Positions 1 through 5,744 are shown, counted from the stretch's first letter. The stretch: 64,000 nucleotides of DNA from Escherichia coli O127:H6 str. E2348/69 (GCF_000026545.1 NC_011601.1); one strand, 5' to 3'. Numbers: made by a program.

Positions 1-3000
1 AGCGCGCAGCTTTCCGAGGTCACCGGTGCTGCACAGGTGGTAGTGGCGCATTTTGCTTCTGACGGCGCGGGGGCCGCTTGTCCCATTGACGCCATCACGC
101 TGCGTACAATTTCTTCAATCTGTTTTTGATCCATGATGTGTTATCTCCGCGTCATCAGAAGAACAGTGACGGATCGCCCGCCCGTTTGGTCAGGCGACCG
201 TTTGCCATAATGCCCATGCTTTCCAGCCAGCGTTCAAACTCCGGTGACGGGCGCAGGTTGAGTAACTGACGCACAGTGGCGGTGTCGTGGAAGGCCGTAG
301 TCTGGTAGTTGAGCATGATGTCATCACCCAGCGGCATCCCCATGATGTAGTTGCAGCCTGCGGTGGCGAGCAGGATCATCAGGTTTTCGTTGAGGTTCTG
401 GTCAGCGTCAGCGTGGTTGGTGTAGCAGCAGTCACAGCCCATAGAGATGCCGCTCAGCTTGCCCATAAAGTGATCTTCTAAGCCAGCACGGATAATCTGC
501 CGGTCGTTGTAGAGATACTCTGGCCCAATAAAGCCGACTACGGTGTTGACGATAAACGGATCGTAATGACGTGCCAGCCCGTAGTTACGCGCTTCCATCG
601 TTACCTGATCTGCGCCGAAGTTAGCGCCCGCCGATAGCGCAGAACCCTGCCCGGTTTCGAAGTAGAGGCAGTTTTCCCCGGCGATACGGTTGAACTCCGC
701 GCCCACTGCGCGCGCTTCGTCGAGCATCGCCAGCTCTACGCCAAACTCTTTCAGCCCTTTTTCACTGCCGCAGATACTCTGGAAAATCAGCCCGCCCGGC
801 GCACCGCGACGGATCGCTTCGATCTGGGTGGTGACGTGCGCCAGTACGCAGCCCTGGGTTGGAATATTGAATTTGTCGATCACGCCATAGATGGTATCCA
901 GCACGCGGCTTAAGTTTTCCACGTCGTCAGTCACCGGGTTAACGCCGATCACCGCATCGCCCACCCCGAAAGAAAGCCCTTCGTAGATTTGCGCGGCGAT
1001 ACTTTGCACGTCGTCGCGGGTATCGTTTGGCTGCAAACGGGCGCTGAAGGTGCCCGGAATACCGATGGTGGTATTGGCCTTTTTGATCACCGGCATTTTC
1101 TTCGCGCCATAGATCAGGTCCGCGTTGGAGCAAATCTTCGCTACCGCCGCGACCACTTCCGAGGTCAGCCCTTTGCGGGTAAAGGCAATGTCGTCCACGC
1201 TGGTTTCATCGCTCAGCACATACTCACGCAGTTCGCTGATGCTCCAGTTTTTAATCTGGTTGTAGGCCGTTTCGTTAACGTCGTCCTGAATCAGTCGCGT
1301 CACGCAGTCATCTTCATAGGCAATCACCGGATTATTGCGGATGTCCGCTACGGTCATTTCCGACAACACCTGCTTTGCCGCCACGCGCTCTTGTGAGCTT
1401 GCCGCTGCAACGCCCGCCAGCACATCCCCCGAACGCAGTTCGTTGGCTTTAGCCAGCACCTCTTTTACATCCTTAAACTGATATACATTGCCGAACAATG
1501 TGGTCTTTAGTTTCATAAGTCGTTCCCTCAGGAAGGAAATGCGAGTGATTTCACCGTCACCGGCACAACCGATCCGCCAAAAAGAGGCGTACCAATGTCG
1601 ATATAGTCCCCCGCGCGGACAATCACTTCGTCAATGACTGCCAACGGGAGTTGTTGTAGCTGTGGGCGCAACAACATGCCCAGAGCTTTACCAAAGTCCT
1701 GCCCGGCCACCACCAGCAGGGGATGCGGATTCGGAAAACGCGCGACGAAATCGACCAGCGCGTTGATGACCGTTAGTACCGCGGCGTAACGCACAGGCAG
1801 CGAGGCGGGAAGCGCCAGCACGTACGCGTCAGTTTTGGGATCAAGATCCAGTTGAATTAGCGCTTGTTGCCAGGCACTCACCAGATCCGTTTCATCAATT
1901 GGGATCGCCACCGGCAAATTGCGCAGCGGCAGTTGTACGCCCTCCAGCCAGATTGTGCTGCCAGAGAGCGAAAGGGTATGTGCACCCGCGCCAATCACCG
2001 TGGCGCGTACGGTTTGCGCCGGAAACTGCACGTTCATCTCACGCAGACGAGGATGCTCATGCAGCGCCGTTGCCAGAAGCGGGCCAATATCGGCAAAACA
2101 GAACGGGTCAGCGGGCTGGTGGCGATAACATTCGCCCACGCCGCCAGAAAGCGTAATGATTTCGGGCGTAACACCTGCGGGCAGCAAACCGGTTTTCATT
2201 AATGCCTGCGCGAGCGGCGAGAGCGTTCCGTCAATCACTTCGACAATCAGCTCTGCCATCCGGCGGGTAACCTGCACCAGCTGCGCGCCGGTCAGCGAAC
2301 GGGCGTCAGTGCCTGCACCGAAGCACTCATCCACTATCATCTGCCCCGGTTTATGAGCGTAAACCACGCGCCCCTGGCTGTCGGTTTCCAGCAGGCGACC
2401 GCCGACGTTGAGGCAAGCGGTGCCGCTGATTTTTCCGGCATCAAACAGGGCGTAGTTCGCGGTGCCACCGCCGATATCGATATTCAGGACCCGACACAGC
2501 CGTTGTTCAGAAAGGGTTTGCGCCCCGGCACCGTGACCGGCGATCACGGATTCGAGATGCGGTCCAGCGCTGGCGACGACAAAATCGCCCAGCGACCGGG
2601 AGAGGGCCATCACCGCCGGGCGAGCGTTGCGGGTTTTTGCGCTTTCACCGGTGATAATGATGGCACCAGAATCAACGCTTTCCGGCGCAATGCCCGCAGC
2701 CTGATATTGCTTGAGGATTAAGGTTTTCAGTTCCGCTTCTTTTAAACCACCCTGTTTATCGACCTGTCTCTTGATCAGATCTCCTGATCAAGAGACTTCA
2801 TCACCAGGTAACCCTCAACCATATCCTGAAGTCTGAACCAGCCATCCCACATGACTACCCAACCGGGGCGACCGGTGCGTTTGCTGTCATGCCATCGCCC
2901 CAGTTTCGCCAGTTTCAGACAGGCCCATTTCAGTGTCGGCATCTGTGACGGAAGCGGTTTTCCTTCCAGCTTAACCCACAGCAGTTTCCACTCTGTCGGC

Positions 3001-5744
3001 GTCAGTATTTTCTCACAGCTGTCATTTTGTGTTTCTTCACTGATACCGCCCTGCCGCAGGCCCAGCACCCGCACCGCGATAAACGCCTTGATAACCACCA
3101 TGCGCTCGAGGTTATCCCGGGTCTGCATTCGCAGCGATTCCACACATGTACCACCACTTTTCCACGCCTTGTGGTATTCCTCTATCAGCCAGCGTCGCTC
3201 GTAATGGCTGACGATACGTCGCGCATCGGCGGCACTCGCCACTTTTTCTGACGTCAGCAGATGCCAGCAGGCGCCGTCCTCTGCCTGCTCCCGGCAACAG
3301 ACATACGTGAGCGGGAGCGCCTGGCCGCTGTTGTCGGGATTTTTTATGCTGACTTCGCTGTAACTGATGAACATCCGGGCCTGGCGGGCTGCCCGCCCGC
3401 CTTTTTGCATCACATTCAGCGTGTGGCTTCCCGCGGTTGCCAGGACTTCCGGCAGTTCGAAGAGCTTGCCGGGTGCTTCTTCCAGCCGGCGATTCTGTGC
3501 TGCACGCACCACGAAGCGCTGCCCGTGGCTGACTTTATAATGCAGGTAATGCCAGATATCCGCTTCCCGGTCACAGACAGTGATTACCCGTTTCTGTATC
3601 TCCCCCAGCCGTTCGGCCATGCGCTCCGAAGCCTGCTGCCAGCGGTAACTTTCTTTTTCTTCATAGGGACGTTCTTTTCGCTGGTGCTTAACACCGTAGG
3701 TGTCCGTGGCACGACTCCAGCGCTGCTGTTCGATAAGACCGACTGGCAGGGCGCTGTCGGGGGCGTACATCAGGACAGAGTGAGCCAGCAGCCCGCGCGT
3801 CTTCGGGTTAGTGGTGGTATTCCCCAGGTCATCAGATGCCGTACTGTGACTGAAGTTAATGGTGGTGGTGTCTTCCAGCGCGAGGAGCAGCGGATGAGCC
3901 TCACATGCCCTTACAGTGGCGGTAAATCCGGCTTCGGCAATGGCTTGCGGGGACACAGACGGGTTACGTATCAGGCGGTACGCACCTTCAACCTGAGCAG
4001 TGGACTGGGATGATTTCACAATAGAAAGACCTGCATGCTGAGCGAGAGAAGAGGCCAGTGACACAAGGCGTCGTGTACGACGCGGATCACCGAGACGGGC
4101 ATGTCCAAACTGCTCGTTAGCCCATGAATAACAATCAGAAAGTACCATAACAGACCCGAAGAAAATGAAATATAAGAGAAGATCAACAGGTGAGGAAAAA
4201 GTTCAAAAAATCGCTGCCGGGGAGGAAGGAAACTACCGGATGGAAAGAGTCCCCCTAAAGCAGACTGACAGACATCACAAATCCCCGGGTGGGGATTTGT
4301 GTATAAGAGACAGGTTTATCGACAGGGGTAAAGAACACCGGGCTTTGCCAGCTAATTTCGCGTTTGATGAATTCGTAGCGCGGCACCTGCGACACCGCCG
4401 CACGGTTAACCAGCTCCAGGTGGGAGAAGATCACCTGGGTGGTGGTGGTGCCGATATCGATACCGACGCTCAGTAGCTGGCGAGTGTTCACGATTGCGCC
4501 TCCGCTTCAGTTTTAGCCGCGGTCGCGTCTTCTTTTGGCACCAGCATCATCGCCACGCCAATTGCCGTTACGCCGCCGATCAATTTGCCGACAATCATCG
4601 GGAAGATCATGGCGTTCATGTTGGCAGCGGCGAAGCCTAAATGGTCGCCCAGGGCGAAAGCAGCGGAAACGGCGAAGGCGCAGTTGATGACTTTGCCGCG
4701 GGTATCCATCTGCTTCATCATGCCAAACATCGGAATGTTGTTGGCAAGCGTTGCCACCATGCCGGCTGCCGCGATATTGTTCATATTCAGCACCTTACCG
4801 ACGCTCATCAGCGGTTTTTCAAACCAGCGAGTCAGCAGCAGTACCATTGGATACGCCCCTAACAGAACGCAGGAGATCGAGCCGATAACTTCAATGGCGC
4901 GCATCACTTCACCGGGTTTATCGCCAGGGGCCATAAAGATAGGATCAAGACCCGGGATCAGTTCCCAGCCAAGGAGGAATTTCACTACCGCAGCGGCAAG
5001 ACCGAGGGTGATCAATGCAACGAGGAATTTGGCGAAGATCTGGAAGCCGTTGATCATTTTTTCCGGGATGAATTTCAGCCCCAGCGCCACCAGCACCGCA
5101 ACGATAAGTACCGGGATCATGTTCATCAGGATCAGCGCAAAGGTGAATTCAACAGGCTGGCCGTTGATCTGCACACCGGAGTACATCGCTACCAGACCAC
5201 CAGCGATACAGCCAATCGGAATGGTCACTATGCCCGCCAGCACGCCGAGCGCCAGATAACGACGGTCAGAAGGTTCGATAATGCCGAGCGCCACCGGAAT
5301 AGAAAACACAATCGTTGGCCCCATCATCGACCCGAGAATTAACCCAGAGTATAGCCACGCTGCTACGTCACCGCCCGCCAGCTCTTTGGCGAGGAAGAAG
5401 CCGCCCATATCGCACGCCAGCAGTGTTCCGGCGAACATTGACGGGTTTGCGCCGAGCATTTCGTAAACCGGGATAATCACCGGTCCGAGAACGTGGGCCA
5501 GTACCGGTGCCAGTGCGGTCATACCGACCATCGCCAGGCCCAGAGCGCCCATTGCCATAAAGCCTTCTTCGAACTGACCGCCGGATCCTTCGATACTTTT
5601 ACCGAACTTACCGAGGAAACGAGCAGAACCGCCGAACTGCGACAGGATCCTGTCTACGGCAGCTATCAGCATAAAGAACATCATGATATACATGATGATT
5701 TCGTTAATTCCCATCGCCTTTACTCCCTGTTAGTTGTTATTTAT

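Follow-up and report, generated by a model that had tools for sequence, protein, structure and literature searches.

The window that we analysed, a stretch of 64,000 nucleotides from EPEC O127:H6 strain E2348/69, begins with genes of the eut operon on the minus strand, among which eutA is interrupted. The genes and fragments at the locus, counted from the first letter of the window, are as follows.

1..134, minus strand: start of eutC, which a Mu-like prophage truncates about 340 bp past the left window edge
155..1516, minus strand: eutB, intact, downstream of the insertion
1528..2763, minus strand: 3' fragment of eutA (pseudogene), the C-terminal 411 codons and the stop codon
2754..2763, no strand: left copy of a 10-bp target-site duplication, GTTTATCGAC (eutA sequence; a single copy in the empty site)
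4314..4323, no strand: right copy of the 10-bp duplication GTTTATCGAC
4314..4491, minus strand: 5' fragment of eutA, with a GTG start at 4491 and the first about 59 codons
4488..5714, minus strand: eutH, intact, upstream of the insertion

Removal of the intervening element together with one copy of the repeat gave a eutA ORF of 1404 bp encoding an EutA of 467 aa, which agreed with the intact protein of strain Z1323HEC0475 at 461 of the 468 positions aligned (the stop codon counted). The empty site in the latter strain, CCCTGTTTATCGACAGGGG, contains one copy of the repeat, and the eutA fragments of E2348/69 carry no further disabling change. In its present state, the 5' fragment continues into the element as a 78-aa hybrid ORF (4255-4491). 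These results agree with the earlier note, made from the sequence, which described eutA as open on both sides and joining exactly across an element of ~1550 bp with a 10-bp direct repeat at its flanks; the repeat is perfect. When the ends of the element were set according to more than 20 other copies, the abutting flanks were equal only at n = 10, so that a duplication of 9 bp plus one chance base was rejected.

Insertion sequences present in many copies are well known to cause misassembly, and about 30 copies of the element lie on the chromosome of this strain, so we considered whether the interruption of eutA reflects a repeat misplaced during assembly. However, the same junctions, 100% identical, recur in three complete assemblies made separately from E2348/69 derivatives, and a perfect 10-bp duplication with exact restoration of the frame is a signature of real transposition; there is thus hardly any room for an assembly artefact.

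The element itself has the following features.

2764..4313, minus strand: complete copy of ISEc13, 1550 bp, IS4 family, IS50 subgroup; the transposase is read in the direction of the eut operon
2764..2782, plus strand: 19-bp terminal repeat of the inside-end type, CTGTCTCTTGATCAGATCT; it includes two GATC (Dam) sites and the stop codon of the transposase
2766..2796, no strand: subterminal hairpin on the inside-end side, which arises because positions 3-15 of the end recur inverted; its 13-bp arms pair perfectly around a 5-nt loop
2775..4148, minus strand: intact transposase gene, 457 aa, WP_000244358.1 (ORF, NCBIfam, Pfam and Tn5 structure match)
3383..3401, plus strand: terminator-like GC hairpin with a T-run, antisense to the transposase gene, as predicted from the sequence
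4276..4301, no strand: subterminal hairpin inward of the outside end, with perfect 11-bp arms and a 4-nt loop
4295..4313, minus strand: 19-bp terminal repeat of the outside-end type, which reads CTGTCTCTTATACACAAAT in the inward direction, 17/19 against the outside end of IS50R

The element was identical at 1550 of 1550 nucleotides to copies on the E2348/69 chromosome and on pMAR2 that NCBI labels 'IS4-like element ISEc13 family transposase'. We took the name ISEc13 from this NCBI annotation, not from a reference entry of ISfinder. The insertion in eutA of E2348/69 is already known and annotated in public records: NZ_CP059840.2 matches the region at 100% over 4.2 kb, and its RefSeq annotation has an ISEc13 transposase and two eutA pseudogene fragments there. 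The 'distinct IS50 relative' of the earlier note is therefore an IS50-group element separate from IS50, as was claimed, but one that is catalogued as ISEc13 and not unrecognised.

The transposase is encoded by the single ORF in the element. It scored 514 bits with the NCBIfam model NF033590 (IS4; cut-off 160), contains the Pfam domains Tnp_DNA_bind, DDE_Tnp_1 and Dimer_Tnp_Tn5, and matched solved structures of Tn5 transposase (E 6e-84). Alignment to the IS50 transposase, which the earlier note had proposed as a check, showed homology over the full length (39% identity, E 1e-96). The note was right about the size and the relatedness of the protein, although 'only distantly similar' to Tn5 transposase overstates the distance. 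The IS4-family signature is a DDE triad with Y-(2)-R-(3)-E-(6)-K (PMC2266710). Residues D93, D193 and E323 of the ISEc13 transposase were aligned to D97, D188 and E326 of Tn5 (DDE), and Y316, R319, E323 and K330 to Y319, R322, E326 and K333 (YREK). The element thus combines the DDE and YREK residues, a single-ORF Tn5-type transposase, IS50-like ends and a duplication within ~8-12 bp, as is characteristic of the IS50 subgroup of the IS4 family.

The ends were compared with those of a real IS50R copy (locus L175). The left end was the same as its inside end at 19 of 19 positions, including both GATC sites; CTGTCTCTTGATCAGATCT occurs once in the window, where the chance expectation is 0. At positions 4 and 18, the right end, CTGTCTCTTATACACAAAT, departs from the outside end of IS50, CTGACTCTTATACACAAGT, a sequence present among the oligonucleotides of PMC3347997. 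The right end keeps TTATACACA, the part in which IS50 has its DnaA site. Both ends start with CTGTCTCTT, and the terminal inverted repeats are of the 5'-CT... type. The earlier note, which had recognised one end as the IS50 inside end and the other as two mismatches from the outside end, had staked its reading on transposase homology and terminal inverted repeats, and both were found. By analogy with IS50, the inside end may be under Dam control and the outside end under DnaA control.

The layout of ISEc13 is also that of IS50R (1534 bp, 476-aa transposase), in which an outside end and a leader are followed by one transposase gene that has its stop codon within the inside end. The two transposases share the three Pfam domains, DDE, YREK and W298. 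On the other hand, the leader is 165 nt in ISEc13 versus 92 nt in IS50; the Met at the inhibitor start of Tn5 transposase has no counterpart (M56 is aligned to Q52); and the perfect subterminal hairpins at both ends of ISEc13, which folded as ssDNA at -13.5 kcal/mol (2766..2796, z = -5.4) and at -12.4 kcal/mol (4276..4301, z = -6.5), are missing from the ends of the IS50R copy. An origin as IS50/Tn5 itself, or as a laboratory mini-Tn5 or Nextera-type artefact, is suggested by the inside end, equal to that of IS50, and by the outside end, which lies between the IS50 outside end and the synthetic mosaic end. This origin is refuted by the identity to IS50R, only 39% in amino acids and about 53% in nucleotides over the whole element (against L175:285-1818), which is below isoform level. 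Moreover, the element has no marker gene and has its own intact transposase, it occupies about 32 sites in E2348/69, and 873 of the 5426 E. coli genomes have matches of at least 80% coverage. We consider such an origin as good as disproved.

By analogy with Tn5, a DDE transposase would bind the two IS50-like 19-bp ends and cut the element out, in a cut-and-paste reaction that may proceed via a hairpin intermediate on the transposon end. The element would then be joined to staggered cuts in the target, with repair of the stagger giving the 10-bp duplication GTTTATCGAC. The insertion destroys EutA, the reactivating factor of ethanolamine ammonia-lyase.

ISEc13 matches were found in 2991 of the 5426 complete E. 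coli genomes, and WP_000244358.1 is annotated in many strains. E2348/69 has the highest load among these genomes (about 32 copies), and its ygfK is likewise split by an ISEc13 copy. Most of the matches in E. coli are partial, with at least 80% of the element covered in only the 873 genomes, which would suit an old, decaying or domesticated remnant that is no longer mobile. The copy in eutA, however, is complete at both ends, its full-length ORF encodes every catalytic residue, its duplication is perfect, and it shares 100% identity with further copies in the genome and on pMAR2, so that a remnant is very improbable. We conclude with near certainty that 2764-4313 is an intact copy of ISEc13, probably still mobile, within eutA of E2348/69; none of our results speaks against this identification.

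The insertion in eutA was found in three of the 5426 genomes, all of them E2348/69-derived assemblies, which together with the otherwise undamaged eutA upholds the description of a fairly recent natural insertion in the earlier note. As judged from these comparisons, the insertion is recent and lineage-specific, the recency being loosely bounded because, among complete genomes in which eutA is intact, the nearest reach only 98.7% identity in the flanks.

The operon is also broken at a second place. Just to the left of the window, a Mu-like prophage of ~35.7 kb splits eutC and also cuts eutL, eutK and eutR off from the remainder of the operon (the promoter-proximal genes). Within ISEc13, a consensus scan of the sense strand found no intrinsic-terminator-like sites, and since the element is co-directional with the operon, transcription through ISEc13 toward eutB is possible. 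A sigma-70 consensus scan of 2600-4600 found no promoter-like site. ISEc13 may be polar on eutB and eutC, but any polarity on eutB would matter little, since the prophage has split eutC independently. For the same reason, the impairment of ethanolamine use that we infer for E2348/69 is over-determined. None of the papers that our searches on E2348 and eutA, eutR or ethanolamine brought up discusses a eut disruption in the strain.

The prophage raises the question of whether ISEc13 was merely a neutral second hit in an operon already inactive through the break in eutC, an instance of IS expansion in a decaying operon, with no phenotype. The position of the prophage, which splits eutC and separates eutLKR, together with the high ISEc13 load of E2348/69 and the split ygfK, is consistent with this. 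Nevertheless, one genome cannot order the two events and the reverse order is equally possible, and, these two insertions aside, the other eut genes that we looked at have intact ORFs, so that both hits are recent. We give the neutral second hit slightly less than an even chance.

As to why eutA was hit, the target sites of ISEc13 fold as hairpins, and the consensus of the flanks is an A-rich stretch, CCCCT, 7-10 nt of any sequence, AGGGG and a T-rich stretch. RGGG was found 7-10 nt from the end of the element in 20 of 26 unique flanks versus a background of 1.2% (P about 1e-33). The length of the duplication ranged from 7 to 10 bp over 15 copies with a mode of 8 bp (10 of 15), so that the 10 bp at eutA is atypical, whereas Tn5 makes a fixed duplication of 9 bp. 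One and the same hairpin can hold ISEc13 in either orientation (L005 versus L134; L008 versus L009). The target in eutA, CCCTGTT-TATC-GACAGGG, fits this preference, the cuts falling exactly after CCCT and before AGGG. We propose that the site was chosen through a strong statistical preference for the dyad of a short GC-rich hairpin with CCCCT/AGGGG arms. Tn5, in contrast, reportedly has only a weak target consensus, A-GNTYWRANC-T, attributed to Goryshin et al. in 1998.

We also scanned the genomes of species with the 21-nt outside end of ISEc13. Among the matches listed, copies of ISEc13 were absent and relatives from marine bacteria were present (loci L011-L130). Sixteen flanks from the scan were dropped as mutated Nextera adapters at the ends of MAG contigs (...GTCTCGTGGGCTCGGATTTGTG...). 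The relatives belong to the IS50 subgroup and come from marine Gammaproteobacteria (Vibrio, Photobacterium, Alteromonas, Neiella, Alishewanella and others). They have the same 21-nt outside end and, like ISEc13, an inside-end-type end starting with CTGTCTCTTGATCA. The transposases of the relatives share about 50% identity with that of ISEc13 and only 39-42% with that of IS50R.

For both ISEc13 and these ~50%-identical relatives, the point of insertion is the dyad of a GC-rich hairpin, in most cases a terminator, and the duplications of the relatives are variable as well (8, 10, 10, 10 and 12 bp). The targets of the relatives are canonical terminators (A-run, hairpin, T-run) with arms of the GGC/GCC type, in contrast to the CCCCT/AGGGG arms of ISEc13 targets, and a T-run after the subterminal outside-end hairpin on the transposase strand is present in the relatives but not in ISEc13. 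An orientation bias, in which the T-run would always lie on the outside-end side in the marine data, was discarded: five complete copies have the A-run opposite, and the orientation of the target is undefinable because the target is symmetric, with an A-run on one side and a T-run on the other.

The only precedent that we found in the literature on the IS4 family or on the targeting of terminators and stem-loops is IS1272. IS1272/TnSha1 (IS1182 family, staphylococci) targets hairpins, many of them proven terminators, and has repeatedly and independently hit one hairpin in both orientations; IS1272 makes blunt cuts, with partial deletion of the hairpin and no target duplication (PMC4923244). 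It thus shares hairpin targeting with ISEc13 but belongs to an unrelated family, and ISEc13, unlike IS1272, retains the whole hairpin and duplicates its centre. In the literature searched, ISEc13 appears by name only, in eight papers, as an item in lists of mobile elements, and its target preference is undescribed; the accessible parts of the text and supplements of an IS4-family review (PMC2266710) mention neither ISEc13 nor terminators. The hairpin-dyad pattern itself is well supported. That ISEc13 and its marine relatives form a hitherto undescribed Tn5-related clade, with hairpin-dyad targeting and a stagger of 7-12 bp varying with the hairpin, is a tentative proposal, which we think has the odds somewhat against it.

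For the strain, the two breaks, eutA::ISEc13 and the prophage in eutC, mean that E2348/69 is not expected to catabolise ethanolamine via EutBC and would be a poor model for ethanolamine-linked physiology. For the element, the preference for hairpins and terminators would account both for the harmless, intergenic position of most ISEc13 copies and for the hits in a few coding sequences that mimic the motif, in eutA and ygfK. If the pattern is indeed undescribed, it would amount to a naturally occurring Tn5-like transposase whose targeting is structure- or palindrome-directed and whose stagger is flexible. Such a preference, together with staggers of 7-12 bp, is relevant to the way in which cut spacing is determined by target capture in Tn5-like transpososomes.

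The element that splits eutA is 1550 bp long (window 2764-4313), and its sole ORF encodes a protein of 457 aa (minus strand, 2775-4148). Its left end, CTGTCTCTTGATCAGATCT, and its right end, read inward as CTGTCTCTTATACACAAATCC, each occur once in the 64-kb window, where zero occurrences are expected by chance. The ends are fixed by over 20 further copies, every one of which starts with CTGTCTC and finishes with GAGACAG in unrelated flanks, and given these ends the abutting flanks of the eutA copy agree at a length of 10 only. The sequence statements of the earlier note (the ends, the 457-aa ORF, a 10-bp flanking repeat and a eutA frame rejoining exactly across the element) were all borne out. 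The direct repeat, GTTTATCGAC, is perfect and adjoins both ends of the element (2754-2763 and 4314-4323; repeat family D7). When the element and one repeat were taken out, the joining of 1528-2763 to 4324-4491 restored a 1404-bp ORF, which, aligned with the uninterrupted EutA of E. coli Z1323HEC0475, agrees with it at 461 of 468 positions; the empty site in that strain, CCCTGTTTATCGACAGGGG, has a single copy of the repeat.

The element is 100% identical over its full length to copies in enteropathogenic E. coli E2348/69 (chromosome and plasmid pMAR2) annotated as 'IS4-like element ISEc13 family transposase', and ISEc13 is a catalogued name in use by mobile-element typing tools. Over 4.2 kb that include the element, the sequence is 100% identical to NZ_CP059840.2 (E2348/69), and two more assemblies derived from E2348/69 match equally well. 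Since the RefSeq gene order here is eutH, eutA fragment, ISEc13 transposase (WP_000244358.1), eutA fragment and eutB, public annotation already records both the insertion and the eutA pseudogene. The finding of the earlier note is real and correctly interpreted, but the element is a catalogued, already known IS whose position in this reference genome is annotated.

We compared ISEc13 with a genuine plasmid-borne copy of IS50R (L175:285-1818, 1534 bp), whose OE and IE are CTGACTCTTATACACAAGT and CTGTCTCTTGATCAGATCT, respectively. As had been noticed from the sequence, the left end of ISEc13 is identical to the IE (19/19), and the right end is two mismatches from the OE (17/19; positions 4 and 18 differ). 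The transposases share 39.0% identity across 480 aligned columns (E 1e-96), and at the DNA level the whole elements reach only about 53%. The best solved-structure matches of the ISEc13 transposase were full-length Tn5 transposase chains (E 6e-84), and residues D97, D188, E326, Y319, R322, K333 and W298 of Tn5 are all kept; the protein has the Pfam domains Tnp_DNA_bind, DDE_Tnp_1 and Dimer_Tnp_Tn5 and belongs to an IS4-family equivalog of NCBIfam (514 bits). The leader is longer than that of IS50 (ATG at nt 166 versus 93), and there is no Met at the position of the Tn5 inhibitor protein start. By homology with Tn5, ISEc13 would transpose by cut-and-paste, and the stagger at the target would be filled in to give the duplication. 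IS50 is modulated by Dam and DnaA, and the same modulation is plausible for ISEc13, since its IE is identical with both GATC sites and its OE retains TTATACACA. ISEc13 also has perfect subterminal hairpins at both ends, whereas IS50R has neither:

2766-2796, subterminal hairpin on the IE side, perfect 13-bp arms (z = -5.4)
4276-4301, subterminal hairpin on the OE side, perfect 11-bp arms (z = -6.5)

These hairpins overlap or adjoin the transposase-binding ends, and the IE-side one is made of end positions 3-15 copied in inverse; possible roles are to limit read-through or to serve as a decoy end.

Of 5426 complete E. coli genomes, 873 have a copy that spans 80% or more of the element, with a median of one place per genome and a maximum of 32; in E2348/69, 30 places are on the chromosome and 2 on plasmid DNA. 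Some match was found in 2991 of the 5426 genomes, and many of the best matches are 90-99% identical, so ISEc13-like remnants, either partial or diverged, are common across E. coli. On the EAF plasmid pMAR2, the copy that lies between finO and hok (L003, NZ_CP059841.1 15027-16576) has no target duplication, which suggests rearrangement or deletion between two copies. Another copy (L004, NZ_CP059840.2 935673-937222) splits ygfK, a putative selenate reductase subunit gene, with a 9-bp duplication, and is a second intragenic insertion in E2348/69.

Among the 5426 genomes, the eutA insertion was found in the three E2348/69-derived assemblies only, and the remaining genomes align across the empty site. 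Neither eutA fragment has a further disabling change. The insertion looks recent on four counts: the duplication is perfect, the element is 100% identical to its sister copies, the fragments are otherwise undamaged, and only one strain lineage is affected. Its age is loosely bounded, though, because the collection has no close relative bearing an empty site (identity at most 98.7%).

EutA reactivates ethanolamine ammonia-lyase in an ATP-dependent manner (PMC5821096) and, split after about codon 59, must be inactivated. ISEc13 and the eut operon run in the same direction, and a consensus scan of the IS found terminator-like structures on the antisense strand only and none on the sense strand. 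The strong terminator-like hairpin at 3383-3401 (plus strand; 7 GC pairs and TTTTT), antisense within the transposase gene, could stop transcripts arriving from the IE side once the IS has destroyed a host terminator. The polar effect on downstream eut genes, considered likely in the earlier note, is not established, and the question is largely moot because eutC is itself split by a Mu-like prophage of about 35.7 kb (Mu transposase, Mor, gpT head and tail genes), which starts about 340 bp left of the window:

L174 (locus) 452-37079, equal to NZ_CP059840.2 1428951-1465578, region of eutC split by the Mu-like prophage, window 1-134 and past its left edge

Beyond the prophage are eutL, eutK and eutR, cut off from the other eut genes. 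With eutA split by ISEc13 and eutC by the prophage, the operon is broken twice. The eutH-eutG intergenic region has an Rfam match to naRNA4, a REP-derived nucleoid-associated RNA (5795-5876, minus strand, 75.5 bits).

ISEc13 has a strong target preference, CCCCT and AGGGG separated by N7-10, at the dyad of GC-rich hairpins. Across E. coli genomes and metagenome contigs we collected 26 unique insertion sites (window 2750-2767 and 4310-4327; loci L004-L010, L131-L162 and L176-L182), and RGGG starts 7-10 nt outside the OE in 20 of them, versus 1.2% of background positions (binomial P ~1e-33). In 14 complete copies, the duplication directly adjoins CCCCT on its left (with C at -4 and -2 in 14/14) and AGGGG on its right, with A-rich sequence farther left and T-rich sequence farther right. 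The duplications of 15 complete copies are 8 bp (ten copies), 9 bp (three), 10 bp (the eutA copy) and 7 bp (one). Most reconstructed targets fold into a GC-rich hairpin, and most lie directly past gene 3' ends, often between convergent genes (yccJ/agp, tldD/aaeR, and a DUF1127 gene/symE). Independent insertions have struck the same hairpin, for example with duplications of 8 and 9 bp (L007 and L179) and, in another hairpin, in opposite orientations (L005 and L134). The eutA target, CCCTGTT-TATC-GACAGGG, was cut exactly on either side of GTTTATCGAC, leaving CCCT to its left and AGGG to its right, centred on the dyad; the site is a look-alike of the ISEc13 target within coding sequence. Elsewhere in the window (62 kb), just five loci fit CCCY-N7-10-RGGG.

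Among the matches listed from species-representative genomes, the exact 21-nt OE occurs at more than 120 places, mostly in IS50-subgroup elements of marine Gammaproteobacteria (L011-L130; for example L022, L023, L027, L093 and L096), whose transposases are about 50% identical to that of ISEc13 and 39-42% identical to that of IS50R. Also among these listed matches, a T-run lies 9-28 nt from the OE in 88 of 100 genuine flanks, and the duplications of the five complete copies for which both flanks are present (8, 10, 10, 10 and 12 bp) are centred on the loop of a classical A-run/hairpin/T-run terminator. The marine relatives have a hairpin and T-run on the transposase strand, inside the OE. Matches at MAG contig ends with ...GTCTCGTGGGCTCGGATTTGTGTATAAGAGACAG were rejected as IS ends; this is the Nextera adapter with two bases wrong. 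Such untrimmed adapter, resembling an IS50-type end, is present in L014, L021, L025, L029, L031, L038 and L046, and in further contig ends including L051, L094, L108, L129 and L130.

A known case of hairpin or terminator targeting is IS1272 (IS1182 family), which makes blunt cuts (PMC4923244) and leaves no duplication, whereas ISEc13 leaves one. Our literature search, to which ISfinder and the figures of the IS4-family review were external, found no description of such targeting in the IS50 subgroup, and for that reason of coverage we do not claim novelty; that the hairpin-dyad targeting is both real and undescribed is a possibility we hold tentatively, with the balance somewhat against it. 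This targeting with variable stagger in a Tn5-related clade is the sole part of the results that is perhaps worth specialist attention.
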